Shown: piece by piece, positions 2,910 to 36,472 of the stretch
Position numbering within the stretch: position 1 is the first letter of the stretch
How the letters are laid out: the number at the start of each line of letters is the position of its first letter
Assembly: GCA_038106575.1 (NCBI GenBank)
Contig: JAYOED010000008.1
Span: forward strand, 1 to 58,491
DNA: 58,491 nt
Reading direction: 5' to 3'
DNA from: Burkholderiales bacterium
Lineage (GTDB): Bacteria; Pseudomonadota; Gammaproteobacteria; Burkholderiales; SG8-41
Position numbers and translations under genes: made by a program
Notes under the pieces: generated by a model
Told to the model about the DNA's origin: nothing
Databases searched by the model: none
Seen by the model: only the letters and a program-made list of their open reading frames with translations

Positions 2910-3000
2910 GAACTTACGTGGTCTTGTCACGAAAGGACAATACTCTACGCCCCCTTTTCTTGCGCCGCAACAAATTCAGTATTCGATGTAACATTATGTT

Positions 3001-5240: not shown

Positions 5241-5292
5241 GATACGGGATTGTAGCTGATCCTGGAAATGGCCCTTCCGGCCGCGGTTTCCC

Positions 5293-5322
5293 AAAAAAAA
5301 ACGGGCGCCCGCAGGCGCCCGT
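5293..5322 (-). terminator. Rho-independent terminator after amtB
   Basis: Minus strand ACGGGCGCC-TGCG-GGCGCCCGT (perfect 9-bp GC stem) followed by T9, about 20 nt after the amtB stop. Confidence 0.85.
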
Positions 5323-5342
5323 GGGGAAAATGTTGAACGGTT

Positions 5343-6710: not shown

Positions 6711-6722
6711 GTCATTCTCCAA

Positions 6723-7076
<354 letters not shown>

Positions 7077-7081
7077 TTAGG

Positions 7082-7103
7082 GGGGGCGGCTTTCACCGCC
7101 CCC
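7082..7103 (-). other. GC-rich stem-loop between the porin gene and glnK
   Basis: GGGGGCGG-loop-CCGCCCCC (8 bp). No U-run follows it. The glnK RBS (AAGGAAA) lies just downstream on the minus strand. Confidence 0.6.
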
Positions 7104-7118
7104 GGCGTGGATCTCAGA

Positions 7119-7940
7119 TCAGAAAGTTTTGGCGACGAAAACCGTGAAGGTGTCCTTGCCTAAAAGGCGTGCGCCTGCATTGCTGGCGTTGGTGTAGAAA
7201 GATTTTTGCGCAGCGGTCATGTCTGTGCCGGTAAAGTAGGCGCCGACAGTGAAGTCTTTCGGCAACGCGTATGTGCCCCCGAGTTTCCAGTCTTTGTAGG
7301 ACGCACAACGGTCATTCGGGGTGTTTGCGCCGCAGGCCGCGCTGGTGCCCTTGAATTCTTGGATACCGTAGTGGGCAAGAATGTTGAACTTGTCGGTGAC
7401 GGGGAAGGTCGCAGACAGGTCAACATAGTACGTGCCGTCGCTGTTGTTCACGCCGAAGGTCTTTTTGTTGATGCTGTGCGAGTATTTGGCCGACAGCCAT
7501 TTCCAGGTCAGCGCGGCATAGACTTCTAGCGTATCTGCTTTGTAAGTGCCGGCATTGACAGCGGTGTTATGGGTGCCGGGGTAGTAGTACTGAAGAATCC
7601 CAACGTCATAGCCGAAGTCGCTTTTGCCGATAGAACCCTTGTAGCCGCCGTAGAAATCCATTTCCAGACTGCTGCTGGTATAGCCGGTGGAGGCCGGAGT
7701 GTCGGTCAGCCAGCTTACATTCGACATCCAGGTGCCGGCATAAAAGCCGCTGGAGTGGCTGTAGTCGAATCCACCTTGCAGCGCCGGATCTTTATTAGTT
7801 TGCGTTAGGCCTCGGAAAATGTATTGACTGTAAATGCCCATATTTCCTGAAAGCGAGTGGGGCGAGTCGGCGGCGGTGGCCAGAGTAGTCGTGAGTGCTG
7901 CGGCAGCAATGAGACCGGCGATCATGGTCTTCTTAAACAT
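7119..7940 (-). CDS. Putative outer-membrane porin, TorF/TIGR02001-like
   Basis: 273 aa. Signal peptide MFKKTMIAGLIAAAALTTTLATA, beta-barrel-like Gly/Tyr-rich pattern and a C-terminal Phe. This family is often found upstream of glnK-amtB (from memory). Confidence 0.7.
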   Translation of the reverse strand: MFKKTMIAGLIAAAALTTTLATAADSPHSLSGNMGIYSQYIFRGLTQTNKDPALQGGFDYSHSSGFYAGTWMSNVSWLTDTPASTGYTSSSLEMDFYGGYKGSIGKSDFGYDVGILQYYYPGTHNTAVNAGTYKADTLEVYAALTWKWLSAKYSHSINKKTFGVNNSDGTYYVDLSATFPVTDKFNILAHYGIQEFKGTSAACGANTPNDRCASYKDWKLGGTYALPKDFTVGAYFTGTDMTAAQKSFYTNASNAGARLLGKDTFTVFVAKTF

Positions 7941-7991
7941 GTTGGTTCCCTTTTGTAGTTAGCACATGTGCGAAAAACGCAACGATTGATA

Positions 7992-8007
7992 AGCAGGTAA
8001 CGTGCCA
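7992..8007 (-). promoter_or_regulatory. Sigma54 (-24/-12) promoter for porin-glnK-amtB
   Basis: Minus strand TGGCACGTTACCTGCT fits TGGCAC-N5-TTGC spacing, with GG and GC in register. About 50 nt upstream of the porin ATG. Confidence 0.8.
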
Positions 8008-9979: not shown

Positions 9980-10366
9980 TCAACACTGTTCCCAGGGCAG
10001 CCCATCATATCGCCATCCGGTTTTCGTGCCCCGGTGATGTTTGTCATCGAGTTCGCCTTCGAAGCCGTGGAGCACGTTGTAGACCTGGGTGAAGCCGGCT
10101 TCTTCAAGGGCATGGCCGGCATCCAGAGAGCGGTTGCCGCTGCGGCAGATGACGATGATCGGACGATCGACACTGGCCGCTTTTTTGACATGAGCGACAA
10201 AATGAGGATTTATTTCCCAGTTGGGGCCGTCATTCCATGCCACGTGGATGGCCCTGATGGGATGCCCGACGAACAAATATTCTATCTCGCTGCGGCAGTC
10301 GATGAATACCGAATTCGGGTTCTGGTTCAGAAACTCGAAGGCTTCCTTGGGCTCCATGTGCTTCAT
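9980..10366 (-). CDS. Single-domain rhodanese-like sulfurtransferase
   Basis: Active-site loop VICRSGNRS. Start uncertain: ATG 10366 (MKHMEPKE) versus TTG 10417. Confidence 0.75.
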   Translation of the reverse strand: MKHMEPKEAFEFLNQNPNSVFIDCRSEIEYLFVGHPIRAIHVAWNDGPNWEINPHFVAHVKKAASVDRPIIVICRSGNRSLDAGHALEEAGFTQVYNVLHGFEGELDDKHHRGTKTGWRYDGLPWEQC

Positions 10367-10513
10367 CGGGATGTCACTGTCACGCTTCGTTAATGAAGGC
10401 GCATTATAGGCGCGCAAAGGTTTCAGGGCCAGTTGCCCAAAAACGCGCTAAGTCCATGATAAAATTCGCGCTTTTCCGGCCTATCCGGCCGTAATAGGGC
10501 TCAAACTGAAGCC

Positions 10514-13500
10514 ATGACTCACTCCCGCATCCACCAATTACCCGAGCTGCTGTCGAAGCGCATCCTGATTCTCGACGGCGCCATGGGCACGATGATCCAG
10601 AGCTACAAGCTGGACGAGGCGGCTTATCGCGGCAAACGTTTCAAGGATTTTGAATACGAGGTCAAGGGTAACAACGACCTGCTAGTGCTGACGCAACCCC
10701 AGATCATCCGCGAGATTCACGAGCAGTATCTCGATGCCGGTTCCGACATCATTGAAACCAACACCTTCAATTCGACATCGGTCGCCATGGCCGATTACCA
10801 CATGGAAGAGCTGGTGTATGAATTGAATGTAGAGGCTGCAAAAATCGCGCGTGCGGCTGCGGACACCTACGAAAAGAAGGATGCCTGCCGGCCGCGCTTC
10901 GTCGCGGGTACGCTCGGACCGACTAATCGCACGGCCTCGATATCGCCCGACGTCAACGACCCCGGGTTCCGCAACGTTAGTTTTGATGGGCTGGTGGCTG
11001 CTTATACCGAAGCCATTCGCGGACTGGTTGACGGCGGCGCCGACCTGTTACTGGTGGAAACAATATTCGACTCGCTGAACGCCAAGGCCGCCCTGTTTGC
11101 GATCGACCGGTATTGTGCGGAAAAAGGACTGAAAATCCCGGTCATGATTTCCGGCACCATCACCGACGCATCGGGCCGCACCCTGTCTGGCCAGACGCCG
11201 GAAGCGTTCTGGAATTCAGTGCGCCATGCCAAACCGATCACCATCGGCTTGAACTGCGCTCTGGGGGCAAAGCTAATGAGGCCGTACATCGAGGAAATCT
11301 CGACGGTCGCCGATACTTTTGTCTGCGCCTATCCAAATGCAGGCCTGCCGAATCCGCTGGCACCGACAGGTTACGACGAGCTACCGGCCGATACCGCAGC
11401 CTATCTGCTTGATTTCGCGAAAAGCGGCTTCGTCAACGTGGTGGGCGGTTGCTGTGGAACGACGCCGCCGCATATCCGCGCCATTGCGGACATCGTGAAA
11501 GACATTACCCCGCGCAAGGTTCCCGCAGTTGAAAAGAAAATGCGCCTGTCCGGACTGGAGCCGCTGAACATCAGCGACGATTCGCTGTTCGTCAATGTCG
11601 GCGAGCGTACCAATGTCACCGGATCCCGCGCCTTTGCCAAGCTGATCCTGGCTGGGAACTATGCCGAAGCAGTGTCGGTGGCACGTCAGCAGGTGGAAAG
11701 CGGCGCCCAGGTGATTGACGTGAACATGGACGAGGCGATGCTCGACTCGAAGGCGGCGATGACCACCTTTCTCAACCTGATCGCCTCCGAACCCGACATT
11801 TCTCGTGTGCCGGTGATGATCGACTCCTCGAACTGGGAACTCATCGAAGCCGGGTTGAAATGCGTTCAGGGCAAGGCGATAGTCAACTCGATCAGCATGA
11901 AAGAGGGTGTCGAACCGTTCAAGCAGCAGGCACGGCTCGCCAAGCGCTATGGCGCTGCTGTAGTGGTGATGGCTTTCGACGAAAAGGGCCAAGCCGATAC
12001 TTATCAGCGTCGCATCGAGATCTCGAAAAAGGCCTACGATATCCTGGTCGGGGAAATCGGTTTTCCGCCGGAAGATATCATCATCGATCCGAATATTTTC
12101 GCGATCGCGACCGGCATCGAGGAACATAACCGCTACGGCATCGATTTCATCGAAGCTACGCGCTGGATACGACAGAATCTGCGACATGCGCGGATCAGCG
12201 GCGGGCTATCGAACATCTCGTTTTCGTTCCGCGGCAATGACCCGGTGCGCGAGGCCATACATACCGCGTTCCTGTTCCACGCGATCAAGGCTGGGCTGAC
12301 CATGGCCATCGTCAATGCCGGCCAGATCGGCGTCTACGACGATATTCCCCAGGATCTGCTCGAGCATGTCGAAGACATCATCTTCGATCGCCGTCACGAC
12401 GCCGCCGAGCGCATGGTCGCATTTGCCGAAACCTTCAAAGGCAAGGGAAAGGTGGTGACGGAGGATCTGGCCTGGCGGGACGCGCCAGTCCGCGAGCGGC
12501 TGACCCATGCGCTGGTCAAGGGCATCTCGAACTGGATTGTTGAAGACACCGAGGAGATGCGCCTGGAAATCGCGGAGCGCAACGGCCGGCCAATCGAGGT
12601 GATCGAGGGCCCGCTGATGGACGGAATGAACGTCGTCGGCGATCTCTTCGGCGCCGGCAAGATGTTTCTGCCGCAGGTGGTGAAATCAGCGCGGGTGATG
12701 AAACAGGCGGTGGCCCATCTGGTGCCGTTCATCGAGGAAGAAAAGAGCCGGCTGGGCGATATTCGTGCCAAGGGCAAGATCGTGTTGGCCACGGTCAAGG
12801 GCGATGTTCATGACATCGGCAAGAACATCGTTGCCGTAGTGCTCCAGTGCAACAATTATGAAGTGGTGAACCTCGGTGTGATGGTGCCGTGGAAACAGAT
12901 CGCGGAAGTCGCGGAGAAGGAAAAAGCTGACATCATCGGCCTCTCGGGGCTGATCACGCCGTCGCTGGAAGAAATGGCCCACAACGCGCGCGAAATGCAG
13001 CGTGCCGGTATGAACATCCCGCTGTTGATCGGCGGTGCCACGACTTCGCGCGTGCATACCGCGGTGAAAATCGCACCGCATTACTCTGGGCCGGTGGTGT
13101 GGGTACCGGATGCTTCGCGCAGCGTCAGCGTGTGTTCGAGCCTGCTCTCCGACAACCAGCGCAAGGGTTATCTGAACGACGTCGCAGCAGAGTACGAGCG
13201 CATCCGCGAACAGCGTGCGGGCAAGAAAGGCCCTGAACTGATTTCGATGGCCGAGGCGCGCGCAAACGCTCTGAAGACCGACTGGAAGAGTTACGTGCCG
13301 CCGAAGCCGGAGATGATCGGGTTGAAGCCGCTGAAGAACTACGACCTATCCGAAATTGCCCGCCACATCGACTGGGGGCCGTTCTTCCAGACCTGGGACC
13401 TGGCCGGGCCATATCCGGCAATTCTAAAGGATCCGGTCGTCGGGGAGGAGGCGCGCAAGGTGCTGGCCGACGGACAGGCGATGCTGAAAAAAATCATCGA

Positions 13501-14221
13501 AGGCCGTTGGCTGACGGCGAACGGCGTATTCGGGTTGTTTCCAGCCGCGCGTATCAATCATGAAGACATTGCAATTTATGCCGACGATACCCGAAAAAAA
13601 CGGCTGATGACCTGGCATAACCTGCGCCAGCAGAACCGCAAACCGAGTGGCCGCGCCAACCAGAGCATTGCCGATTTCGTCGCGCCGCTGGAATCCGGGG
13701 TCGCCGATTATGTCGGCGCTTTTGCAGTTACTGCGGGGCTGGGCATCGACAAGCGCATTGAGAATTTTGAAAAGCGGCATGACGATTATTCAGCCATCCT
13801 GCTCAAGGCGCTGGCCGACCGTCTGGCTGAAGCGTTCGCCGAACTGCTGCATTTGCGCGTGCGCCGCGAGTTCTGGGGTTATGCGCGCGACGAAGCGCTG
13901 GACAATGACGCCTTGATCGCGGAGAAATACCGCGGCATCCGGCCTGCTCCGGGATATCCGGCTTGTCCGGACCATACCGAGAAAGGCGCATTGTTCGAAT
14001 TGCTGCAGGCGGGTCGCATTGACATGCGGCTGACCGAGTCCTACGCCATGCAGCCGGCATCCTCGGTAAGCGGATTTTATTTCTCGCATCCCGAGGCGCA
14101 GTATTTCGCCATCGGCAAAGTTGATCGCGATCAGGTGGCGGATTACGCAAAGCGCAAGGGTATTTCGCTAGCCGATGCCGAACGCTGGCTGGCGCCGGTC
14201 CTGGGCTACGATTCCGCTTGA
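10514..14221 (+). CDS. metH: Cobalamin-dependent methionine synthase
   Basis: 1235 aa with Hcy-binding, pterin-binding, B12-binding ([11 protein letters not shown]) and AdoMet-activation domains in order. Confidence 0.97.
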
Positions 14222-24995: not shown

Positions 24996-25736
24996 ATGGC
25001 CCGTGCCAAGGCAGGCAAGGTTGCGCGTCCGACGCTGTTGCGGATGCTGCTTCGCTTGACCGGATTCATGCTGCTGCTGGCACTGATCGTGCTGACCGCA
25101 GTGCAGTTCTGGTTCCTGGTGCATGTCTGGTACTGGGTGGATCATAACCCTGAAACCACAGCATTCATGCGCGCACGGCTGGAAATTCTGCGTGAAAGCG
25201 ATTCACGGGCGCGGCTGCACCAGCGATGGGTACCGTACCAGCGGATTTCCTCGCATCTGAAGCGGGCCGTAGTGGCATCTGAAGACGCAAAATTCGTATT
25301 TCATCAGGGTTTCGACTGGGATGGCATCCGTTATGCAATGGAACGCAACCTGCGCGAAGGCGAAATCGTCGCCGGCGGATCGACCATTTCCCAGCAACTT
25401 GCGAAAAACCTTTTTTTCGGCGGGCAGCGTGCCTGGTGGCGCAAGACCCAGGAAGCGGCGGTGACCGTCATGCTCGAAACGATAATGAGCAAAAGACGGA
25501 TACTCGAGATTTATCTGAATGTGATTGAGTGGGGAGATGGGGTCTACGGAGCGGAAGCCGCGGCGCGGTATCACTACGGCACCAATGCCGCTGTTCTCAC
25601 CGATGAGCAGGCGGCGCGTTTGGCGGCCATCGTGCCCAGTCCCCGCCGTTACGGGCCGGACAGCAATACCGATTACCTCCAGCTGCGGACTCAGACCATA
25701 CTCTCGCGCATGAACAGTTCGTCTGTTCCCCGATAA
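24996..25736 (+). CDS. mtgA: Monofunctional peptidoglycan glycosyltransferase
   Basis: [30 protein letters not shown] and RKTQEA. Confidence 0.9.
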
Positions 25737-25928
25737 ATACCGAATTAATAACAACAAACCCGGAACAGTGCAGTCAAGGCGGGATGGAGTCTGCGGATCT
25801 GGTCAATTCACTGTTGACCGGTCCCGGACGTCGGCATACTCTGCCCAGATGTTTTTCTGCTGCAGCGGAAAATCTGACCGCGGCGTTCGACCGCGGCTTG
25901 TATGACAGGGATCGAGGGGCTCAGGAGC

Positions 25929-25946
25929 GCCGCATCGGTGTGCGGC
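25929..25946 (+). promoter_or_regulatory. Leader inverted repeat upstream of Mo-hydroxylase module 1
   Basis: GCCGCA-tcggtg-TGCGGC, then a T7 run and GAGG before the ATG. It is positionally equivalent to the module 2 dyad. Confidence 0.5.
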
Positions 25947-25978
25947 AACGTGTCTTTTTTTCAAAGCGAGGTTTGAGC

Positions 25979-26428
25979 ATGATTTCACTCAATATCAATG
26001 GCCGCATGCATCAGGTCGATGTCGAACCCGATACGCCGCTGTTGTGGGCGATTCGCGAGCAGGTTGGTCTGACCGGCACCAAATACGGTTGCGGGGTCGC
26101 GCAGTGCGGATCCTGCACAGTGCACATCGATGGTGAAGCCGTGCGCTCTTGTGCGATGCCGGTTAGTGCCGCTGCCGGCAAGCGTATTACCACGATCGAA
26201 GGCCTTGCCAAGGGAAAGACGCTGCACAAGGTGCAGAAGGCCTGGGTCGATCACCAGGTACCGCAGTGCGGGTATTGCCAGTCGGGCATGGTCATGGCGG
26301 TTGCAGCATTGTTGGCGAAGAAACCGAAGCCGACCAATGCCGACATTGACACCCATGTCACCAACATCTGTCGCTGCGGCACCTTCCAGCAGGTGCGTGA
26401 AGCGATACACGCCGCAGCCAAGGCCTAG
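25979..26428 (+). CDS. [2Fe-2S] small subunit of a xanthine-oxidase-family hydroxylase (IorA/CoxS-like), copy 1
   Basis: 149 aa. [11 protein letters not shown] and CGYCQSG...CRCG cluster motifs. No signal peptide. Start at MISLNINGR. Confidence 0.9.
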
Positions 26429-26439
26429 GAGACCGCGAC

Positions 26440-28632
26440 ATGGAAACCATCAATATGAATCGCCGTTCGTTCTTGGTCACCAGCGCTGCCGCGGGGGGCG
26501 GGCTCGTCCTCGGCTTGCAGATCCCCTTCGGCATGACGACTGCGCAGGCTGCAGAAACCGTTCCCGAAATCAATGCCTGGGTCGTAATCAAGGCCGACGA
26601 TTCGGTCGTGATCCGGGTTGCGCGTTCTGAAATGGGTCAGGGCACCATCACCGGTCTGGCCCAGCTGGTCGTCGAAGAACTGGAATGCGACTGGTCAAAA
26701 GTCAGCACCGAATATCCGACGCCGGGCGAGAACCTGAAGCGCAATCGCGTCTGGCAGAGTTTCTCGACAGGAGGCAGCCGCGGCATCCGCACATCGCACG
26801 ATTATGTAAGGCGCGGTGGTGCTGCGGCACGCATGATGCTGCTGCAAGCAGCGGCCGACCAGTGGAAAGTGCCGGTCAACCAGTTGTCGGTCAGCAGGGG
26901 CGTGATTACACATGGTGCCAGCGGGCGCAAGGTGACTTACGGCAAGGTGGCTGCGGCCGCGGCGAAATTGACCCCGCCCGATGCGAAAGCCATCAAGCTC
27001 AAGGATCCGAAGAAATGGAAGGTCGCCGGAAAACCGATGAAGCGTTTTGGTACGGTCGACAAGGTCACCGGCCGCCAGGTCTATGGTGCGGACCTCAAGC
27101 TGCCGGGCATGGTCAATGCAACGATCATGGAATGCCCGGTATTTGGCGGCAAACTGAAAGCGTTTGATGCCGCCAAAGTCTCCGGCATGAAGGGCGTCAA
27201 GCAGGTCCTGCGTGTCGGTGATACCGCGGTCGCTGTTGTTGCCGATACCTGGTGGCATGCAAAAAAAGCACTGGATGGGCTGCCTGTCGATTGGGACTAT
27301 GGCGACAACGTCAAGGTATCGAGCGCCTCGATTGCCGATGTACTGAAGGCGGGTCTGGATGCACCGCAGGCTTTCGTCGGCAACAAGACGGGCGATGTCC
27401 AGTCCGCACTGAAAGGCGCGGCGAAGACCGTCGATGCGGTCTATTCATATCCGTACCAGAACCACGCACCGATGGAGCCGATGAACGCGACCGCGCGTTA
27501 CACACCGGACAAGTGCGAAGTCTGGGTGCCCACACAGGACGGCGAATCCTCGTTCGCCGCCGTGCTGGCGGCTTCCGGTCTGCCTGCGGACAAGTGCGAG
27601 GTTTACAAGATCGATCTCGGCGGCGGTTTCGGCCGGCGTGGTGCCTTCCAGGATTATGTGAAGCAGGCCGTGCTGATTGCCAAGCAGATGCCCGGGACAC
27701 CGGTCAAGTTGCTGTGGACGCGCGAGGAAGACATGCGCCAGGGCCGCTACCACCCCGTCATGCAATGCAAGCTCACCGGCAGTCTCGACTCCGCCAACAA
27801 CCTTACCGGGCTGCACATGCGCCTGTCAGGACAGTCGATTCTGGCTTCGGTGCGTCCGGCCGTCGTCGAGAAAGCCGGTGGCAAGGATCCGCTGACGTTC
27901 CAGGGTGTGGCGCAAAGCGGTGAGCATTCGATCGGCTACAGCTTTCCGAACCTGCTGATCGACCATGCCATGCGCAATCCGCATGTGCCGCCCGGTTTCT
28001 GGCGTGGCGTCAACATCAATCAGAACGCCATTTTCATCGAATGCTTCATGGATGAACTGGCGCATGCGGCAGGGCAGGATCCTCTGGAATTCCGTCGCAA
28101 GTTCATGGCGGATCATCCGCGCAATCTCGGCGTGCTGAATGCTGTTGCCAAGGGTATCGGCTGGACGAAACCCGCACCGAAGGGGCGTTATCGAGGCCTG
28201 GCGCAAATGAAAGCGTTCGACAGTTTTGTCGCGGCGGCCTGTGAGATTTCGGTGGACAGCACCGGCAACAAGGTCAAGATTCACCGCATCGTGGCAGCGA
28301 CCGACCCGGGTTATGCGGTCAATCCGGCGCAGATCGAGCGCCAGATCGCCGGATCATTTGTCTACGGCCTGTCTGCATTGTTTATGCAGGAATGCACGGT
28401 CAAGGACGGCCGCATCGAGCAGGACAACTTTCACACCTACAACTCGATGCGCATCGCGCAGATGCCCAGGGTCGAAAGCATCATCATGCCGACCGGCGGG
28501 AAGGTCTGGGGCGGCATCGGCGAGCCTACCATCTGCGTTGCTGCGCCGGCAGTGCTCAACGCCTACTTCAAGGCGACCGGCAAGCGCATCCGCACGGTCC
28601 CGTTGAAGAATCACGGTATTGAACTCGTTTGA
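26440..28632 (+). CDS. Molybdopterin-binding large subunit (IorB/CoxL-like), Tat-exported, copy 1
   Basis: 730 aa. Twin-arginine signal MNRRSFLVTSAAAGGGL. EINAWVVIKADDSVVIRVARSEMGQGT is typical of the IorB-type family. Confidence 0.9.
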   Translation: METINMNRRSFLVTSAAAGGGLVLGLQIPFGMTTAQAAETVPEINAWVVIKADDSVVIRVARSEMGQGTITGLAQLVVEELECDWSKVSTEYPTPGENLKRNRVWQSFSTGGSRGIRTSHDYVRRGGAAARMMLLQAAADQWKVPVNQLSVSRGVITHGASGRKVTYGKVAAAAAKLTPPDAKAIKLKDPKKWKVAGKPMKRFGTVDKVTGRQVYGADLKLPGMVNATIMECPVFGGKLKAFDAAKVSGMKGVKQVLRVGDTAVAVVADTWWHAKKALDGLPVDWDYGDNVKVSSASIADVLKAGLDAPQAFVGNKTGDVQSALKGAAKTVDAVYSYPYQNHAPMEPMNATARYTPDKCEVWVPTQDGESSFAAVLAASGLPADKCEVYKIDLGGGFGRRGAFQDYVKQAVLIAKQMPGTPVKLLWTREEDMRQGRYHPVMQCKLTGSLDSANNLTGLHMRLSGQSILASVRPAVVEKAGGKDPLTFQGVAQSGEHSIGYSFPNLLIDHAMRNPHVPPGFWRGVNINQNAIFIECFMDELAHAAGQDPLEFRRKFMADHPRNLGVLNAVAKGIGWTKPAPKGRYRGLAQMKAFDSFVAAACEISVDSTGNKVKIHRIVAATDPGYAVNPAQIERQIAGSFVYGLSALFMQECTVKDGRIEQDNFHTYNSMRIAQMPRVESIIMPTGGKVWGGIGEPTICVAAPAVLNAYFKATGKRIRTVPLKNHGIELV

Positions 28633-29080
28633 CCGCCGCCGCGACTTCCTGAAAACCGCTGGCCTTGCGGCCGGCGGCGCGGCGCTGGTGTTGCCGGCAC
28701 TGGCCTCACCGGAAGATATGCGCGCCGCATTGACTAAGATCACCGGCGGGGCTGACGTGCGCCGTGGACGCGTCAAGTTGCAATTGCCGCCGTTGGTGGA
28801 AAACGGCAACTCGGTCGAGTTTTCGGTGACCGTCGACAGTCCGATGACGGAAACCGACTATGTGAAGGCGATCCATGTATTCACGGAAAAAAATCCCCAG
28901 CCGTACGTGATCAACGCCTATCTGGGGCCGCGCGCCGGCCGTGCACGGATCACCAGCAGAACGCGGCTGGCTGACACTCAAACCGTGCACGCGGTTGCCG
29001 AACTGAGCAACGGCACATTCTGGACGGATTCTGTCAGCGTGGTGGTCACACTGTCAGCGTGCATCGGGGATTTGATCTGA
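28619..29080 (+). CDS. SoxY-like sulfur-carrier protein with a non-canonical C-terminal arm, copy 1
   Basis: Tat signal RRRDFLKTAGL. SoxY core LPPLVENGNSVEFSV...VHAVAELSNGTFW. Ends VVVTLSACIGDLI instead of GGCGG. The TTG start overlaps the Mo-subunit stop by 14 nt. Confidence 0.8.
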   Translation: MNSFDRRRDFLKTAGLAAGGAALVLPALASPEDMRAALTKITGGADVRRGRVKLQLPPLVENGNSVEFSVTVDSPMTETDYVKAIHVFTEKNPQPYVINAYLGPRAGRARITSRTRLADTQTVHAVAELSNGTFWTDSVSVVVTLSACIGDLI

Positions 29081-29400
29081 TGGCCGACGTGATGGTCAGC
29101 GTTCCTGCTCAGGCGCGGCGTGGCGAGATCATCGAGATCAAGGCGCTGGTGCGCCATCCGATGGAGAACGGGTTTCGCCACACGCAAACCGGTGAACGCA
29201 TTCCGCGTAACATCATCACCAATTTCGTCTGTCGCTATGACGGAGTGGAGATTTTCCGGGCGACGCTGCATCCATCGATCACCGCCAATCCAATGCTGGT
29301 GTTCTCGACGGTCGCAACTGCAAGCGGCAGGATCGAGTTTAGTTGGACCGGGGACAATGGCTTCGTGGTTACGCAGGCGGCCAGCCTCCGGGTGATTTAG
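29080..29400 (+). CDS. soxZ: SoxZ-family protein, copy 1
   Basis: IEIKALVRHPMENGFRHTQTGERIPRNII...ANPMLVFS...FSWTGDNGF. The ATG overlaps the SoxY-like TGA by 1 nt. Confidence 0.85.
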   Translation: MADVMVSVPAQARRGEIIEIKALVRHPMENGFRHTQTGERIPRNIITNFVCRYDGVEIFRATLHPSITANPMLVFSTVATASGRIEFSWTGDNGFVVTQAASLRVI

Positions 29401-29599
29401 AAAATATCATTTAAAACAGACACTTGTAAATTATCTTCTACGGCAATGTGGTTGCGCTTGGGTTACTCGCCGCCGCCGCCAGTTTTTTTCTTGACCGGTG
29501 CAGACCGCGGGAATAATCTGCCCGGCGCGCGTTGTTCATCATGCGCAGACTGCGGCGCCAGACCGCGGCGAATACCAGCGGCGTCGAGGGGAATCAGGC

Positions 29600-29618
29600 G
29601 TGCCACATTGGGTGGCAC
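29600..29618 (+). promoter_or_regulatory. Leader inverted repeat upstream of Mo-hydroxylase module 2
   Basis: GTGCCAC-attgg-GTGGCAC, then a T5 run and GAGG before the ATG. Confidence 0.5.
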
Positions 29619-29647
29619 CGGATGGTTTTTCACTGCGAGGAAAAGTC

Positions 29648-30199
29648 ATGATTCAACTCAATGTCAACGGTCGCACCTACAGGCTCGATGTCGAGCCCGA
29701 TACCCCCCTGCTGTGGGTCATTCGCGAACATGTCGGATTGACCGGCACCAAATACGGTTGTGGTGTCGCCCAGTGCGGCGCCTGCTCGGTTCATCTTAAC
29801 GGCGAGCTGATTCGTTCCTGTTCGCTGCCGGTGAGCGCAGTCAAGGCCTCGGACAAGATCGTCACCATCGAGGGGCTGTCGCGGAACAGTTCACATCCCC
29901 TGCAGAAAGCCTGGGTCGAATTTGACGTTCCCCAGTGCGGTTACTGCCAGTCGGGCCAGTTGATGGCGGCGTCTGCGCTGCTTGCGAAAAATCCGAAACC
30001 CACCGATCAGGACATCGATGACGCGATGACCAACATCTGCCGCTGTGGCACGTATCAGCGCATTCGAGCCGCGATTCATCGGGCGGCCGGCACCGGCAAA
30101 GGCGGCAAGGGCAATGGTTCGATCATACACATGGGCGCAGGTCCGACGGGCCGCGAGGTGGTGATGGCCGAAGCCGGGCAACCCGAGATGAAAGCCTGA
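29648..30199 (+). CDS. [2Fe-2S] small subunit (IorA/CoxS-like), copy 2, with a Gly/Lys-rich C-terminal tail
   Basis: 183 aa. Same Cys motifs as copy 1. The extra tail [36 protein letters not shown] is absent from copy 1. Confidence 0.9.
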
Positions 30200-30212
30200 G
30201 GAGCGCGCGATC

Positions 30213-32414
30213 ATGACGACCAAGCAATCAATGAATATTGAAAATGAATCCCGCCGCCGCTTCATCGTCGGTTCGGCTGCCGCAGGCGGCGGACTGGCGC
30301 TCGGTATTGGCTTGCCTTTTGGTTCGGTCACGGCGGCGGAAGGCCCCGGCAGCACCGAGGTCAATGCCTGGGTCGTCGTCAAACCCGACGACACTTGCGT
30401 GATCCGCATCGCCCGCGCCGAAATGGGACAGGGCACTCATACCGGACTGGCCCAGCTGGTGGCCGAAGAACTGGAGTGCGATTGGAAAAAAGTTGCGATC
30501 GAACCGATCAGCCCGGGCAGCAATCTGGCGCGCAAGCGGGTTTGGGGTCCGATGTCGACCGGCGGCAGCCGCGGCATCCGCAGTTCCCAGGATTATGTCC
30601 GTCAGGGTGGTGCGGCGGCACGCATCATGCTGTTGCAGGCGGCAGCGGATCAGTGGAACGTCACTGCGGGTGAACTGACGGTGTCCAATGGGGTCATCAC
30701 TCATGCTGCCTCGGGACGCAAGACTACCTACGGCAAGGTGGCTGACGCGGCTGCCAGGCTGCCGGTGCCGAAATTCAAATCTATCAAGCTGAAGAATCCC
30801 CGTGACTGGAAGATTGCCGGTCAGCCGCTGAAGCGGCTCGACACCGCGGACAAGGTCAATGGGGGCAAGAAATACTCGATCGACCTCAAACTTCCCGGCA
30901 TGATGTTCGCCGCGATCAAAGCCTGCCCTGTTTTCGGCGGCAAGGTGGCGGGTTACGAAGAAGGGGCGATTGCGAGCCGCCGCGGCGTGAAGGGCGTGGT
31001 GAAGGTGGGCGACTCGGCGATCGCAGTCGTTGCCGATACCTGGTGGCGCGCCAAGACCGCTCTGGATGCGCTGCCAATCACCTGGGACGAGGGCGTCAAT
31101 GCCAAGGAGACGAGCGCGACCATCGCGGTACGGTTGAAAGAAGGCCTTGATGCTGATGGCGAGGCTTATGCGGATACCGATATCGGAGACGCTTCGGGCA
31201 CCATTTCCGGCGCTGTGAAAAAGGTTGAAGCTGTCTACAGTGTGCCGTTCGTTTCACATTCCTGCATGGAGCCGATGAACTGCACGGTCAAGGTCAGCGC
31301 CAACTCCGCGGAAGTCTGGATGCCGAGCCAGAACGCCGAGGCTTCGCTGGCCGTGCTGTCCTCGGTTTCCGGCGTTCCTCTGAACCAGTGCGAGGCTTAC
31401 AACCATGGACTTGGCGGCGGATTCGGCCGTCGTGGCGGCACGCAGGACTTCGTAAGACAGGCTACAGCAATCGCCAGACAATTTCCCGACACCCCGGTGA
31501 AGCTGATCTGGAGCCGGGAAGAAGACCAGTCACACGATTTCTACCGGCCGATCGCACAGTGCAGGCTGTCGGCAGGACTGGATGAAGACGGCAACCTGCA
31601 GGGACTGCATATCCGAGTGTCCGGCCAGTCGATCAACGCCTACCTGGCTCCGCACAACATCAAGGAAGGCAAGGATCGCCGGCAATTGCAGGGGTTGTGG
31701 AAGCAGCCGCATGACGCACAGTTCGGCTACACGGTGCCGCACCTGCGCATCGAATACGTGATGCGCAACACCCATGTTCCTGTCGGACCCTGGCGTGGCG
31801 TGAATACCAACCAGAACGGCATATTCAGCGAGTGTTTCATGGATGAGGTCGCCAAGGCTGCGGGCAAGGACCCGCTGGAATTCCGCCGCGAGCTGATGAA
31901 AGATCATCCTAAGCATCTCGGCGTGCTCAATGCCGCTGCCGAGAAGGGCGACTGGGGCAAACCCCTGCCTGCCGGAAGGTTTCGCGGCATTGCCCAGTTC
32001 ATGGGCTACGCCAGTTACACTGCGGCGGTGGCAGAAGTGTCGGTCAGCGCCAAAGGCGAGATCAAGGTGCATCGAATGGTGCTGGCGACCAATTGCGGTC
32101 ACGCAGTGAATCCCGCTACGATTGCGGCACAGATCGAAGGCTCGGTAGCCTACGGGTTTGATTCGCTGCTTACTGAAATCAGCATTAAGGATGGCCGGGT
32201 GCAGGAACAGAATTTCCATACCTACCAGATCGCTCGACTGCGGCATTTGCCCAAGGTCGAATCGGTCATTGTGCCGACCTATGATTTCTGGGGAGGAGTG
32301 GGTGAGCCGACGATCTGCGTGACGGTTCCCGCAGTGCTGAACGCGGTTTTCGCGGCCACTGGCAAGCCGGTGCGTACGTTGCCGCTGAAGCACGAAGGGT
32401 TGACGCTGGTCTGA
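30213..32414 (+). CDS. Molybdopterin-binding large subunit (IorB/CoxL-like), Tat-exported, copy 2
   Basis: 733 aa. SRRRFIVGSAAAGGGL signal. Collinear with copy 1 over its whole length. Confidence 0.9.
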   Translation: MTTKQSMNIENESRRRFIVGSAAAGGGLALGIGLPFGSVTAAEGPGSTEVNAWVVVKPDDTCVIRIARAEMGQGTHTGLAQLVAEELECDWKKVAIEPISPGSNLARKRVWGPMSTGGSRGIRSSQDYVRQGGAAARIMLLQAAADQWNVTAGELTVSNGVITHAASGRKTTYGKVADAAARLPVPKFKSIKLKNPRDWKIAGQPLKRLDTADKVNGGKKYSIDLKLPGMMFAAIKACPVFGGKVAGYEEGAIASRRGVKGVVKVGDSAIAVVADTWWRAKTALDALPITWDEGVNAKETSATIAVRLKEGLDADGEAYADTDIGDASGTISGAVKKVEAVYSVPFVSHSCMEPMNCTVKVSANSAEVWMPSQNAEASLAVLSSVSGVPLNQCEAYNHGLGGGFGRRGGTQDFVRQATAIARQFPDTPVKLIWSREEDQSHDFYRPIAQCRLSAGLDEDGNLQGLHIRVSGQSINAYLAPHNIKEGKDRRQLQGLWKQPHDAQFGYTVPHLRIEYVMRNTHVPVGPWRGVNTNQNGIFSECFMDEVAKAAGKDPLEFRRELMKDHPKHLGVLNAAAEKGDWGKPLPAGRFRGIAQFMGYASYTAAVAEVSVSAKGEIKVHRMVLATNCGHAVNPATIAAQIEGSVAYGFDSLLTEISIKDGRVQEQNFHTYQIARLRHLPKVESVIVPTYDFWGGVGEPTICVTVPAVLNAVFAATGKPVRTLPLKHEGLTLV

Positions 32415-32869
32415 TGGAGATCCGCAGCTGCGTGCGCCTGTGCGCGTGGTGGATTGCGCTAGGCGCCGTGGCTGGCTGTGCAATTTCTGAAGTATCGCCC
32501 GTTGAAGTAACGGTCAGGGTCGGCGCCATTCCGGTGGCGCTATCCAAGGCGCCTGCCGACCCGGCGCGCGGCCTGAAAATCATGTCCGGGCGCGACGCAA
32601 ACTGCCTGCTGTGTCATGCAGTGCCGGAATCAGGGCTGCGCTTCATGGGCAATCTCGCGCCGCCGCTGTCGGGTATTGGCGGGCGACTGTCCGCCGCACA
32701 ACTGCGGTTGCGCGTGGTTGATATGTCGCGGCTGAATCCCGAAACCATCATGCCGCCGTATTATCGGGTCACCGGACTGCGCAACGTGGCTGACGCCTAT
32801 CGCGGAAGACCTGTTCTGACGGCGCAGGAAATCGAGGACGTGGTGGCCTATCTGCAGACGCTGAAATGA
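32414..32869 (+). CDS. soxX: Monohaem c-type cytochrome SoxX-like, with a lipobox signal
   Basis: Single CLLCH. GNLAPPLSGIG...IMPPYY matches the SoxX pattern. N-terminus ALGAVAGC is a lipobox. Sits in soxX-Y-Z-A order. Confidence 0.75.
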   Translation: MEIRSCVRLCAWWIALGAVAGCAISEVSPVEVTVRVGAIPVALSKAPADPARGLKIMSGRDANCLLCHAVPESGLRFMGNLAPPLSGIGGRLSAAQLRLRVVDMSRLNPETIMPPYYRVTGLRNVADAYRGRPVLTAQEIEDVVAYLQTLK

Positions 32870-33318
32870 TTTCCCGCAGAACATTCCTGCAGTGGATGGC
32901 CGGACTGTGTGCGCTGGACGCCGGTTCGGCGCGCGCGCAGGCCGTTGCATCAAACGATCTGCGGCCGCTAATCGCTGAGCTTACCAGTGGTGCCGCGGTA
33001 ACCGTCGGACGTATCCGTGTGGAAACGCCGCGTCTGGCCGACAACGGGCATTCGGTGCCGATGAAGCTCGTGGTGGACAGCCCGATGACGGCGACGGACT
33101 ATGTGAGCAGCATCACGCTGCTGTCACCGCGCAACCCGCGGCCGCTGATGGCGAAATTCATGCTTGGGCCGCGCGCCGGCCGCGCAGAAATCCTGACCCG
33201 CGTGCGCCTCAACGGTACCCAGGCCGTGCTGGCAATCGCGCATTTGTCCGACGGCACGTTCTGGAGCGGCAGCGCCGAGGTCGAGGTGACCGAGTCGGCC
33301 TGTCTGGATGCCGTCTAA
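32866..33318 (+). CDS. SoxY-like sulfur-carrier protein with a non-canonical C-terminal arm, copy 2
   Basis: Tat signal SRRTFLQWMAGL. Core TPRLADNGHSVPMKL...LAIAHLSDGTFW. Ends VEVTESACLDAV. ATGA overlap with soxX. Confidence 0.8.
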   Translation: MISRRTFLQWMAGLCALDAGSARAQAVASNDLRPLIAELTSGAAVTVGRIRVETPRLADNGHSVPMKLVVDSPMTATDYVSSITLLSPRNPRPLMAKFMLGPRAGRAEILTRVRLNGTQAVLAIAHLSDGTFWSGSAEVEVTESACLDAV

Positions 33319-33638
33319 TGGTGGCGCGTGTGCAGGTTCCGGCGAATGCAAGGCGCGGCGACGTCATTGCCGTGCGCATCGCAATCCAGCATCCGATGGA
33401 AACCGGTTTTCGCTATGACTTGCGCGGCAAACTGTTGCCGAAAAATGTGATCAACAGCCTGGTGTGCCGTTACAACGGCACTGAAATTTTCCGTGCGGAA
33501 ATGGGCTCGGGCATTGCCGCCAATCCCTCCCTGCAGTTTTACACGGTGGCTGCGGACAGCGGCGAATTGCATTTCGAGTGGGTGGACGACCGGGGCGTGC
33601 GCGGCGAGGAACGGGCGCGACTGGTCGTCAGCGGTTGA
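33318..33638 (+). CDS. soxZ: SoxZ-family protein, copy 2
   Basis: IAVRIAIQHPMETGFRYDLRGKLLPKNVI...ANPSLQFY...FEWVDDRGV. TAATG overlap with the upstream gene. Confidence 0.85.
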   Translation: MVARVQVPANARRGDVIAVRIAIQHPMETGFRYDLRGKLLPKNVINSLVCRYNGTEIFRAEMGSGIAANPSLQFYTVAADSGELHFEWVDDRGVRGEERARLVVSG

Positions 33639-33640
33639 AC

Positions 33641-34423
33641 ATGTCCTGCGTCCGCAAGCGCTGGTGTTGGGGCCTGCTGCTGGCGGGCTGCATGGTCGCG
33701 GCCATGGGCGCCGATAACGGACCGCGTCAGCGTTCGGGCGTCGACTACGCCAGCGAATATATTCGTACCATGCAGGCTGATGATTTTTCCAATCCCGGTA
33801 TGCTGTGGGTCACGCGCGGAGAGAAACTGTGGAATGCCAGTGATGGACGCACCGGAAAATCTTGCGCCGGCTGCCATCAGGATGCGCGATCAAGCATGAA
33901 GGGCGTGGCGACCCGCTATCCATTGCAGGACAGAGATTCGGGAAAACTGCTTAATCTCGAAGCGCGCATCAACCAGTGCCGTCAGGTTCGCCAGGGCGCG
34001 GAGCCGTATCGCTACGAGTCCGACGAACTTCTGGGGTTGACCGCTTACGTAGCGCATCAGTCGCGGGGGCTACCGCTGGCGGTCAGGATTGATGACAGCA
34101 ACCGCGAGCATTACCTCCGCGGTAGGGCCACCTATAACCGCAGGCAGGGCCAGATGAATCTCGCCTGTGTCAATTGCCATGAGCAGAATGCCGGACGCCG
34201 GCTGCTGGCGGAAACGATCAGTGAGGGTCATGGCAACGCATACCCAATCTACCGATTAGAGTGGCAGTCTACTGGATCGTTACACCGGCGCTTGCGTTCC
34301 TGCTATTTTGGCATTCGCGCGCAGTTGCCCGCGTACGGCTCCGACGAACTTCTGGAGCTGGAGCTGTTTCTGGCGCAGCGGGCACGCGGGCTTGCGGTCG
34401 AGACACCGGGCGTCCGCCGCTAG
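33641..34423 (+). CDS. soxA: Dihaem c-type cytochrome SoxA-like
   Basis: CAGCH and CVNCH, plus the conserved Cys-ligand context LHRRLRSCYFGIRA. N-terminus GLLLAGC may be a lipobox. Confidence 0.8.
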   Translation: MSCVRKRWCWGLLLAGCMVAAMGADNGPRQRSGVDYASEYIRTMQADDFSNPGMLWVTRGEKLWNASDGRTGKSCAGCHQDARSSMKGVATRYPLQDRDSGKLLNLEARINQCRQVRQGAEPYRYESDELLGLTAYVAHQSRGLPLAVRIDDSNREHYLRGRATYNRRQGQMNLACVNCHEQNAGRRLLAETISEGHGNAYPIYRLEWQSTGSLHRRLRSCYFGIRAQLPAYGSDELLELELFLAQRARGLAVETPGVRR

Positions 34424-34447
34424 TTCGGGCGGCTTTATTGGTCAGAG

Positions 34448-35425
34448 TTAGATCTGGGTGCCCAGTTCGATGACCCGGTTGTTCGGCAGGTTGAAATAAT
34501 CGACGAGCCTGCTGGCATTGCGCACCATCGCCGCGAATATGCGTTCCCGCAACAGCGCCATGTCTCCGCCGCTGAACGGAATCAGTATCTCACGGCTGAG
34601 GAAGAACGAGGTTTCCATGAATTCGAACACCAGTCCGTGCGGGCAGTAAAGATCCAGCGCCTGAGGCACATCGGGCTGGTTCTCGAATCTGAAGCGCGCC
34701 CGAATTTACTAGCAGCCATTGCCCAGCGACTTCACGGATATGCGCTCGCTGCACGAAACCCAGGGCACACCCTCGATGGTTACAGTCAGGAAGATCACAC
34801 GTTCTTACAGAAACTTATTGCGCGATAGGTTGTGCAGTAGGGTATGGGGCAAGGTATCTGGGGCCTCCATGAATACCGCTGTACCGGGGACGCAAGGCAG
34901 CGGAAATTCAGACACTGAACCAAGCGAGGTTTGCAGCGGAATGGCGGACGAATGCATGCGGTCGATGACAATCTGCCGTCCCCGCGCCTAGGTCAGCATG
35001 ATAACGAACATCGTGGTAACCAGCACCAGCGGCGGCCAGCCGCCCTGTGCCACCTTGAGTAGACTTGATGAGAAAAACGCAATATCGATCAGGATGAAAA
35101 ACCCAGCAGCGCCATGCGAAAATTTAGGTTGGGCGGGTTAATCCACCAGAGATGCGCGCCAAACCAGATGGCCAGGTTGCTACATGCCAGTAGGCTCTCA
35201 AACTGGGCGGACCTACCTGAATTGATTACACGTCGGGTCGAGCCGATCCATGCGGCAATCAGCAACGTAATTAAGGCAATGGCGACGACATGTGTAGGGA
35301 GAAAGCGTGAAAAGACTCTATGAATAACGAGCCTGCCATTCCTGCAGATGGCGATCCGTTAGCCTCCGTTCGGAAATACCAGGGACATACAGCCTGCCGG
35401 GACGTGCCTGATGAAACTAACGCAA
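34448..35425 (-). pseudogene. kup: Decayed, 5'-truncated KUP/HAK-family potassium transporter gene
   Basis: My minus-strand translation gives ...AAGFFILIDIAFFSSSLLKVAQGGWPPLVLVTTMFVIMLT*ARGRQ...[43 protein letters not shown]...LGNGC**IRARFRFENQPDVPQALDLY...METSFFLSREILIP...LPNNRVIELGTQI. In-frame stops lie at 34988-90, 34805-07, 34709-11 and 34706-08. The frame changes near 35110-35140. Homology starts only around 35425. Confidence 0.85.
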
Positions 35426-36472
35426 ACTGGCATTGATTTTTTCCAGTGTCGCCGAGCCGGGGCACAGGTCGCCGGTACCGAGCTGGTTAAGCGGGGTGTC
35501 GACGGTCTTGATGTAGTGATGCAGGTCGGCGGCGTCCGGCGACAGATAGAGTAGGCCGGTCACAATTTCGCCTGCTGCGGCGCGCTCCTGCACGTAGTTC
35601 ATGGCCTTGATACGGTCGGTGGGATCGTAGTCCGGCGACAGCTTGCGTAACCTAAGCATCGAGCCATCGTGCTGGGCGACGCTGATGACCTCGCCAGGCT
35701 CGTAATCAGCGGTAATTTCTTCCCTGGATTCGATGAAGTCAAGCCGGTTGACCGCGGCGTTATGCAGGCGCACGTATTCGTAGGACTTGGTCGAACCTTC
35801 GTGATTGTTGAAGGCGACGCAGGGTGAAATGATGTCGATGAACGAGGGTCCCGGATGCTGGATCGCGGCCTTGATCAGCGGTACCAGCTGCTTTTTGTCT
35901 CCGGAGAAGGCACGCGCGACAAAAGTAGCGCGCAGCAGCAGGGCCATGCCGACCAAGTCTACGGCCTCGTCGGGATTGAAAACGCCGCGCTTGGATTTCG
36001 AACCCTTGGTTGCCGTAGCAGAGAACTGACCCTTTGTCAGTCCGTAAACGCCATTGTTTTCGACGATGTAGACCATGTTGACGCCGCGGCGAATGCAGTG
36101 CGCAAACTGGCCAAGACCAATCGAGGCCGAGTCGCCGTCTCCGGAAACGCCCAGATAGAGCAGGTCGCGATTGGCGAGATTGGCGCCGGTCAGCACCGAG
36201 GGCATGCGGCCATGGACGCTGTTGAAACCGTGCGAATTGCCGAGGAAGTAATCCGGGGTCTTTGACGAGCAGCCGATGCCGGACAGCTTGGCGACGCGGT
36301 GGGGCTGGATATCCAGTTCCCAGCAAGCCTGGATGATGGAGGCCGAGATCGAATCGTGGCCGCATCCGGCGCACAGCGTGGAAATCTTGCCCTCGTAATC
36401 GCGGCGGGTATAGCCCGCGGCATTGGGGGCAAGTGACGGATGGTGCAGTTTGGGTTTAGCAAGATAGGTCAT
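35417..36472 (-). CDS. korB: 2-oxoacid:ferredoxin oxidoreductase beta subunit (TPP-binding)
   Basis: 351 aa. CAGCGHDSI and GVSGDGDSASIG motifs. Confidence 0.88.
   Translation of the reverse strand: MTYLAKPKLHHPSLAPNAAGYTRRDYEGKISTLCAGCGHDSISASIIQACWELDIQPHRVAKLSGIGCSSKTPDYFLGNSHGFNSVHGRMPSVLTGANLANRDLLYLGVSGDGDSASIGLGQFAHCIRRGVNMVYIVENNGVYGLTKGQFSATATKGSKSKRGVFNPDEAVDLVGMALLLRATFVARAFSGDKKQLVPLIKAAIQHPGPSFIDIISPCVAFNNHEGSTKSYEYVRLHNAAVNRLDFIESREEITADYEPGEVISVAQHDGSMLRLRKLSPDYDPTDRIKAMNYVQERAAAGEIVTGLLYLSPDAADLHHYIKTVDTPLNQLGTGDLCPGSATLEKINASLR

Follow-up and report, generated by a model that had tools for sequence, protein, structure and literature searches.

The gene at 28619..29080 on the forward strand of contig JAYOED010000008.1 (assembly GCA_038106575.1, a Burkholderiales bacterium), whose whole analysed stretch of 58,491 nucleotides we call the window, encodes a SoxY-like carrier of 153 residues, SoxY1, that is a further member of the already curated family TIGR04487, 'SoxY-related AACIE arm protein', and not a SoxY of the GGCGG type. 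SoxYZ is the textbook swinging-arm carrier of inorganic sulfur intermediates, and by its sequence features SoxY1 is a periplasmically targeted carrier subunit of this SoxY-SoxZ type with its Cys in the canonical position. Carriers with the AACIE arm are linked to a xanthine-oxidase-family molybdenum (Mo) enzyme and to SoxXA, a linkage that is tight and ancient and extends over several hundred species at least. The family and the cluster type are already on record, and what deserves attention is how the module functions as a whole; the window adds the presence of two enzyme-carrier pairs on one SoxXA, the Glu-to-Gly change in the arm being minor. Family, fold, position of the carrier Cys, periplasmic targeting, partner genes, conservation and purifying selection are all matters of observation.

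Against TIGR04487, an NCBIfam/TIGRFAMs model (SoxY_para_1, type 'exception'), SoxY1 scores 192.2 bits where the cut-off is 172 (E 3.7e-57), its residues 7-149 covering model positions 2-145 of 146. Against TIGR04488, the model of the GGCGG thiosulfate carrier SoxY, it reaches 100.2 bits, under the cut-off of 125, and against TIGR04557, the fused SoxYZ-like carrier, 53.4 bits (cut-off 140); the Y and Z genes are separate here. The AACIE-arm family had been suggested by name in a sequence-only reading of this DNA, which proposed setting the two SoxY models against each other; the family does exist, and SoxY1 passes its cut-off and fails that of the GGCGG model. The C-terminus of SoxY1, VVVTLSACIGDLI, carries the arm V143-T-L-S-A-C148-I-G-D-L-I153 (29045..29077, forward strand), and because VTLSACIG is placed by phmmer opposite VTIGGCGG of Paracoccus SoxY (2ox5_Y), Cys148 (codon tgc at 29060-29062) is the carrier Cys. 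Canonical SoxY ends GGCGG-COOH whereas SoxY1 ends SACIGDLI-COOH, with exactly five residues (IGDLI) after the Cys. This agrees with the same reading, in which GGCGG was said to be replaced by SACIGDLI and the Cys to be kept with five residues of a bulkier, charged tail behind it, and it can be read directly from the open reading frame (ORF). A frame or sequencing error hiding a GGCGG terminus is rejected by inspection of the three forward frames, GGCGG being absent from the other two over 29040-29120 (HCQRASGI* and TVSVHRGFDLMADV), and by the conserved tails of homologues.

The tail VT[LI][ASGP]AC[LIV].. is present in 120 of the 120 best database homologues, and the alignment of homologous C-termini proposed earlier thus finds it conserved. 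Pooling these sequences with the carriers of 80 genome loci (n=197) gives the arm logo V-T-L-[A130/S46/G18]-A197-C197-[L127/V38/T20/I11]-[E184/G9/D4], with four to six residues after the Cys. The xACIx/xACLx pattern initially expected holds in so far as A-C-I is present; for the family it is refined to [ASG]-A-C-[LVTI]-E, from which SoxY1 departs at the Glu. Like other TIGR04487 proteins SoxY1 has a twin-arginine translocation (Tat) signal, an immunoglobulin (Ig)-like SoxY core, an adjacent SoxZ, the A-C arm and a hydrophobic residue at Cys+1, but Gly150 stands at Cys+2, where 184 of the 197 relatives have Glu and nine have Gly. This Gly is limited to the closest Burkholderiales relatives of SoxY1 and one AACVG sequence. 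Ile at Cys+1 is a minority state (11/197) and Ser at Cys-2 is common (46/197), while the tail SACIG[DN]L[IV] recurs in the seven closest relatives of SoxY1 (66-97% identity). When 24 AACIE-type and 12 GGCGG-type sequences were compared, the core motifs RR, ENGN, DSPMT, NP, G-x-A and RLA..Q proved common to both, and the positions that separate the two types lie mainly in the arm (A147 vs G), plus W135/Y, R108/K and N64.

A profile search with the family over 1.84 billion cluster representatives (50% identity) returned 3092 matches, 322 of them at E <= 1e-30 and some of these GGCGG-type SoxY; the best 150 comprise 79 with an xAC[LIVT][ED] arm, 16 with GGCGG, 25 with other Cys tails and 30 that are truncated. 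Arm variants beyond both curated types were also seen, for example AACVVL-COOH and GACDALMFRY-COOH (L088 1095-1586; P0156, P0166, P0226), the latter in a SoxX-Y-Z-A set on a short contig on which a Mo-subunit fragment was not detected upstream; AACIDGG is another of the more distant arms. The string 'AACIE' was met in no paper of the literature searched, and a 2024 survey of SoxY diversity dropped sequences without a GGC motif (PMC11237559), a filter by which the AACIE-arm family was left out.

The N-terminus of SoxY1, MNSFDRRRDFLKTAGLAAGGAALVLPALA followed after the cleavage site by SP, is a Tat signal peptide (28619..28705, forward strand; residues 1-29, DRRRDFLK ... ALA before SP) that scores 22.5 bits with TIGR01409 (cut-off 16.7). 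R7 and R8 are invariant in the homologue alignment, and the cleavage site is the one suggested by the AxA motif. Pfam SoxY matches residues 41-148 with 100 bits, and the AlphaFold2 model (predicted local distance difference test, pLDDT, 78.6 overall and 82-93 in blocks over residues 31-140) has its best solved-structure matches in SoxY, 2ox5_Y and 2nnc_A, with template-modelling (TM) scores of 0.77-0.81. The tail residues 149-153 have a pLDDT below 50, which suggests that the tail is flexible. The partner SoxZ1 (106 residues; 29080..29400, forward strand) scores 87.2 bits with Pfam SoxZ and 76.0 bits with TIGR04490, equal to the cut-off of 76, and its start codon, the ATG at 29080, shares one base with the stop codon of SoxY1. 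Tat signal, Ig-like core and SoxZ partner, all three proposed in the sequence-only reading, are in this way borne out. The SoxY1 start codon is a TTG within a 14-nucleotide (nt) overlap with the 3' end of the upstream gene Mo1, and this overlap of start and stop suggests translational coupling.

In its fold and in carrying the Cys where the last strand ends (VT-x-x-x-C) SoxY1 is like canonical SoxY (TIGR04488; 2OX5, 2OXG, 2NNC, 4UWQ), as it is in Tat export, in having SoxZ as heterodimer partner and SoxXA co-located, and in the core motifs ENGN, DSPMT, NP and RLA..Q. Its setting is different, with a xanthine-oxidase-family Mo enzyme where SoxB and SoxCD would be expected, both in the window, among whose annotated ORFs (~400-52,000) SoxB, SoxC and SoxD were not found, and in the 80 loci. 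These were obtained by a genome scan with the family alignment, one genome per species, which gave at least 600 stretches, at least 594 of them confirmed; the loci compared are the best 80, i.e. the closest relatives of SoxY1. They come from Alpha-, Beta- and Gammaproteobacteria, Rokubacteria and Methylomirabilia, and include cultured Bradyrhizobium and Methylocella. SoxZ lies downstream of the carrier in all 80 and SoxX directly upstream in 76, SoxA is found downstream in 75 of 77, and in the 70 loci with enough flank a Mo subunit is encoded on the same strand within 5.3 kb upstream of the carrier in 68 and an iron-sulfur (FeS) subunit upstream in 66. Clustering of the neighbouring ORFs yielded only two more recurrent genes, a FccB/SoxF-like flavoprotein (58 loci) and a cytochrome c of about 100 residues (16 loci), and no conserved cluster of SoxB or SoxCD size in the 80 loci. 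The flavoprotein, of 427 residues and encoded between the Mo subunit and SoxX (e.g. L045 8235-9518), occurs in most alphaproteobacterial, Rokubacteria and Methylomirabilia modules, preceded in 16 loci by the small cytochrome c. It was not found in the window or in most betaproteobacterial loci, and was rejected on this account as an obligatory part. The conserved module is FeS, Mo, (cytochrome c, FccB-like), SoxX, SoxY(AACIE), SoxZ, SoxA, and the context of SoxY1 fits it, with FeS1-Mo1 directly upstream and SoxX and SoxA, common to a second set, 3.3-4.6 kb downstream.

A cluster of this type was recorded for Starkeya novella in 2013, no function being given, as a second cluster soxX2Y2Z2A2F2 (Snov_1982-1977) with a xanthine-oxidase-family Mo enzyme (Snov_1975/1976) (PMC3797975). 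Its gene content is that of the module: SoxX, SoxY, SoxZ and SoxA are joined by a SoxF-like flavoprotein and a Mo enzyme of two subunits, and SoxB and SoxCD are missing; the window differs in having no SoxF/FccB-like gene, and in its two Mo enzymes and two carrier pairs on one SoxXA. Expression of the S. novella cluster was very low on glucose, methanol and thiosulfate, SoxAX2 and SoxYZ2 were not detected in the proteome, and the authors considered that the cluster might be functionless or of use under different growth conditions (PMC3797975). SoxY1 could by the same token belong to a decaying duplicate without function, a possibility that scant expression and undetected protein under the three S. 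novella growth conditions (PMC3797975) would favour but that fits poorly with the sequences themselves. In comparison with the closest genome, the Burkholderiales metagenome-assembled genome L081, the ratio of nonsynonymous to synonymous substitution rates (dN/dS) is 0.126 for SoxY1, 0.114 for SoxZ1, 0.055 for Mo1, 0.064 for FeS1 and 0.095 for SoxA, i.e. 0.05-0.13 and indicative of purifying selection for all five genes. A-C is invariant in 197 of 197 tails, conservation of gene order extends across phyla, the family is present in at least 594 species-level genomes, and the frames are intact. By these selection and conservation data decay is effectively excluded, and we give it next to no credence.

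SoxY1 might instead be a back-up or isoform thiosulfate carrier, to which SoxXA loads thiosulfate for SoxB and SoxCD encoded elsewhere, the Mo enzyme being an unrelated neighbour. SoxX, SoxZ and SoxA do reach the NCBIfam equivalog cut-offs of the thiosulfate system, the motif content of the carrier core is nearly identical to that of GGCGG SoxY, and duplicate sox genes have been suggested to tune substrate specificity via SoxAX isoenzymes (PMC3797975). Yet TIGR04487 is curated as an 'exception' to SoxY, SoxY1 lies under the SoxY equivalog cut-off, and a Mo enzyme linked in 68 of 70 loci over several phyla is not a chance neighbour. The canonical arm in 4UWQ is a small peptide rich in Gly that is threaded into SoxB, and a longer tail with Ile, Asp, Leu and Ile would be unlikely to fit. 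Thiosulfate oxidation in Bradyrhizobium diazoefficiens requires soxY1 of sox locus I but not soxY2 (PMC5748708), and the 80 related loci include Bradyrhizobium genomes; the second S. novella cluster is likewise not induced by thiosulfate (PMC3797975). Overall, we regard a thiosulfate back-up as unlikely.

A closer view of how enzyme and carrier are associated comes from the window itself, in which two FeS-Mo-SoxYZ sets stand in tandem (25979-34423) with one SoxX and one SoxA for both. The second set, on the same strand as the first, begins after a 250-nt gap behind SoxZ1 with FeS2, the 2Fe-2S small subunit of a second molybdenum hydroxylase (29648..30199; Pfam Fer2_2, Fer2), and Mo2, a Tat-exported molybdopterin large subunit paralogous to Mo1 (30213..32414; Pfam MoCoBD_1/2, Tat signal), and is completed by the carrier SoxY2 (32866..33318) and its partner SoxZ2 (33318..33638; TIGR04490 83.5 bits, cut-off 76; Pfam SoxZ 94 bits). 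SoxY2, whose tail EVEVTESACLDAV ends in ESACLDAV, scores under the curated cut-offs of the AACIE-arm and GGCGG models alike (TIGR04487 144.3 bits, <172; TIGR04488 91.1 bits, <125). It belongs to a VTE[ST]ACLD carrier subfamily, found also in L001, L041 and L084, that appears to have no curated model. At the same chromosomal site L081 (7364-12107) has a single set, FeS-Mo-SoxY(SACIGDLV)-SoxZ-SoxX-SoxA, and DNA collinearity identifies FeS2-Mo2 and SoxY2-SoxZ2 as what the window has in addition, SoxX and SoxA being collinear; the L081 Mo subunit is 93% identical to Mo1 and 57% to Mo2.

L001, L041 and L083 have the tandem layout as well, whereas L084 is a standalone module in which a carrier of the SoxY2 type (VTESACLDAD) accompanies a Mo subunit 69% identical to Mo2 and 58% to Mo1. 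Enzymes of the Mo1 type are found with VTL[AS]AC[LI][EG] carriers (L081, L023) and those of the Mo2 type with VTESACLD carriers (L041, L084), and L081 and L023 have neither FeS2-Mo2 nor SoxY2-SoxZ2, yet have kept SoxXA. Mo type and carrier type therefore tend to travel together, and of the computational evidence this co-variation, with the joint absence, hints most strongly at a direct relationship between enzyme and carrier.

We propose that SoxXA loads Cys148 and that the Mo enzyme processes the resulting adduct, the carrier standing outside the canonical thiosulfate cycle of SoxXA, SoxB and SoxCD, a reading to which we assign a little under an even chance. SoxXA couples thiosulfate to canonical SoxY, and here it would oxidatively couple a sulfur nucleophile to Cys148 on the flexible arm. 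Sulfide, polysulfide or another thiol-type compound are candidates for this nucleophile, with an entry at sulfide or polysulfide suggested by the frequent FccB-like flavoprotein; from the B. diazoefficiens and S. novella data it can be argued that thiosulfate would not be the physiological trigger (PMC5748708, PMC3797975). In a second step the arm would present the adduct to the Mo enzyme for oxidation with water-derived oxygen, so that the Mo enzyme would be in SoxCD's place and SoxB would be unnecessary, and electrons would exit via the 2Fe-2S clusters and pass to cytochromes of the c type. With its greater length and bulk (AC-I/L-E/G-x-x-x for GC-G-G), the tail may act as a specificity element, directing the carrier toward the Mo enzyme set and away from SoxB and SoxCD, and an arm that alters enzyme docking would be consistent with the Mo enzyme found in place of SoxB and SoxCD in the neighbourhood. 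The narrower proposition that AACIE-arm SoxYZ is a dedicated protein-bound substrate of the xanthine-oxidase-family Mo enzyme we advance tentatively, with the balance tilted towards doubt. Thiocyanate, methanethiol, heteroaryl thiols and S-formyl adducts were considered as substrates and are not proposed, having no support from any of the tools used; several of them are disfavoured because they lack the C-H normally attacked by this enzyme family.

Several points weigh against the proposal that the Mo enzyme acts on a carrier-bound adduct. Each chemical step and the identity of the substrate we infer. We know of no xanthine-oxidase-family enzyme that acts on a protein-bound or a sulfur substrate, and members of the family normally need a C-H for hydride transfer. 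The SoxY2 proteins of S. novella and B. diazoefficiens are likened to the carriers described here by gene content and not by arm sequence. The synteny counts cover the closest relatives only, the contigs of more distant variants being too short, and the search for SoxB and SoxCD covered window positions ~400-52,000 and not the rest of the genome. In five alphaproteobacterial loci (L009, L018, L022, L033 and L058, ~1-8000 in each) two or three FeS-Mo pairs, 50-77% identical to FeS1/Mo1 of the window, precede one SoxX-Y-Z-A set, so that diversification has gone further in the Mo enzyme than in the carrier of these Alphaproteobacteria. The second Mo subunit of L001 is neither of the Mo1 nor of the Mo2 type. 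A strict one-to-one pairing of Mo enzyme and carrier, to which the window, L041 and L084 had pointed, is contradicted by these multi-Mo, single-carrier loci and by L001, and was rejected in favour of the tendency described above.

The enzyme directly upstream of SoxY1 consists of FeS1, the 2Fe-2S small subunit of molybdenum hydroxylase 1 (25979..26428, forward strand; Pfam Fer2_2, Fer2), which has no signal peptide of its own, and Mo1, a Tat-exported molybdopterin large subunit of the xanthine-oxidase family and of the IorB or membrane aldehyde dehydrogenase (ALDH) type (26440..28632, forward strand; Pfam MoCoBD_1, MoCoBD_2, Tat signal). FeS1 resembles XdhC, PaoA and glyceraldehyde-dehydrogenase (DH) gamma subunits and falls under all NCBIfam equivalog cut-offs. 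The closest solved relative of Mo1 is 8gy3_C, large subunit of a membrane-bound aldehyde dehydrogenase, with which it aligns over the full length (E 3.7e-68), and the GIGEP of Mo1 is aligned with PaoC GVGEL and 8gy3 GLGEP, a position that we take to be the catalytic Glu site of xanthine-oxidase-family enzymes. Judged by its domains, the 2x[2Fe-2S] subunit and this presumed Glu motif, Mo1/FeS1 is a molybdenum hydroxylase of that family; we give the Mo subunits no substrate name because their scores lie under every NCBIfam equivalog cut-off.

Xanthine-oxidase-family enzymes need a terminal Mo=S sulfido ligand, which can be lost in an oxidising periplasm, and a different relationship between carrier and enzyme can be drawn from this established need. 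The carrier could be a sulfur donor, its persulfide (from SoxXA and/or the FccB-like flavoprotein) installing or repairing the ligand, with the substrate of the Mo enzyme unrelated, e.g. an aldehyde. There is no XdhC-type chaperone gene among the conserved module neighbours, one carrier for two or three Mo paralogues would fit a common maintenance factor, and the closest solved relative of Mo1 is indeed an aldehyde dehydrogenase. However, PaoABC and membrane ALDH, which are periplasmic members of the family, manage without such a sulfuration system, a dedicated repair system of four or five genes would be extravagant, and the co-variation of Mo and carrier types fits a substrate relationship equally well as repair. 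We consider a sulfur-donor role improbable.

The two cytochromes that serve both sets are each present as the sole copy in the locus. The monohaem cytochrome c SoxX (32414..32869, forward strand; haem motif CLLCH) scores 75.9 bits with TIGR04485 (cut-off 61) and the dihaem SoxA (33641..34423, forward strand) 227 bits with TIGR04484 (cut-off 110); ATG 33641 is the likely start of SoxA, the mechanical ORF beginning at GTG 33578. SoxA aligns with Rhodovulum SoxA 1h31_A (E 3.8e-47), both CxxCH motifs included, and its RLRSC lies opposite RFRGC, presumably the stretch with the Cys ligand of the active-site haem. SoxA and Mo1 look catalytically competent on account of the CxxCH, RLRSC and GIGEP alignments, the last two being read by the presumed roles of these motifs. 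Lipobox-like motifs follow a short hydrophobic stretch in SoxX (AVAGC, 32414-32500) and SoxA (LLAGC, 33641-33700), which suggests that SoxXA may be lipoprotein-anchored in the source organism. Membrane anchoring of SoxXA was rejected as a family trait, a lipobox-like motif being present in 5 of 36 SoxX and 11 of 70 SoxA relatives.

These cytochromes admit one more explanation, in which the sox genes would be an electron-transfer accessory, SoxXA and possibly SoxYZ forming the cytochrome c acceptor chain of an IorAB/ALDH-type enzyme that acts on a free aldehyde or N-heterocycle, with the carrier Cys as a regulatory element or redox relay. Enzymes of the IorAB/ALDH type usually have a cytochrome c subunit or domain, 8gy3 being such a complex, and no other cytochrome subunit is encoded in the module of the window. 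Against such a role, SoxA aligns over RLRSC, presumably the site of the Cys haem ligand that is typical of the sulfur-coupling enzyme and would not be expected in a plain electron carrier; hardly a locus is without SoxY and SoxZ, A-C being invariant and the arm conserved; and the frequent FccB/SoxF-like flavoprotein points to sulfur chemistry. We judge an electron-transfer accessory to be quite unlikely. The probability that remains belongs to an explanation not yet imagined.

The closest functional parallel to the proposed processing of a carrier adduct by the Mo enzyme is SoxCD, and it is an analogy only: in both cases a periplasmic molybdoenzyme is found by SoxYZ and SoxXA and possibly oxidises carrier-bound sulfur. 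SoxC is a member of the sulfite-oxidase family that works with the dihaem SoxD, whereas the module enzyme combines a xanthine-oxidase-family Mo subunit and a 2Fe-2S subunit, and there is no homology between them. A SoxYZ-derived carrier outside the thiosulfate pathway has a precedent in the fused SoxYZ-like TIGR04557 protein of the Pseudomonas putida ped cluster (PP_2677), which is tied to a periplasmic dehydrogenase (PMC12997753). Like SoxY1 this protein is periplasmic and the neighbour of a periplasmic dehydrogenase, but it is a single fused Y-Z polypeptide found with pyrroloquinoline quinone (PQQ) dehydrogenases, and SoxY1 is a separate subunit.

The AACIE-arm branch is almost always wired to a Mo enzyme whose family is not known to engage in sulfur chemistry. 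If the proposed processing is right, this would be the first case of a xanthine-oxidase-family member working on a sulfur or organosulfur substrate tethered to a carrier, and hundreds of species of soil and freshwater bacteria would have a periplasmic oxidation pathway independent of SoxB and SoxCD, with the arm sequence as an address label that separates two Sox-type pathways in one periplasm. A carrier that feeds the Mo enzyme would imply unrecognised periplasmic oxidation of sulfur or organosulfur compounds in such common inhabitants of soil as Bradyrhizobium, Starkeya, Methylocella, Burkholderiales and Rokubacteria. Genome annotation should not take sox genes of the AACIE-arm type as a sign of thiosulfate oxidation.

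The module is flanked by housekeeping genes, aroE and mtgA upstream and a 2-oxoacid:ferredoxin oxidoreductase downstream. A scan of 25600-35500 for promoters and terminators gave no more matches than shuffled expectation, so that operon boundaries cannot be drawn, and one terminator-like hairpin lies at the SoxA stop (34416-34433). At Rfam gathering thresholds no riboswitch or other known RNA element was found near the module, the sole match in the window being a SAM-II riboswitch (SAM_alpha, RF00521) at 290-365 on the reverse strand (39.5 bits, gathering 36), whose target gene would lie at or beyond the left end of the window. Two housekeeping sulfur features of the window are unlinked to the module, a single-domain rhodanese gene (9980-10417, reverse strand) beside metH (10514-14221) and the glutathione genes gshA and gshB (3001-5294). 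Just downstream of SoxA lie the remnants of two genes on the reverse strand, a kup potassium transporter gene (34451-35110), in which residues 405-625 of the L081 protein are all that is matched, and a TMEM164-like gene (35107-35322; residues 3-74); both genes are intact in L081, so that a deletion scar marks this site in the window.

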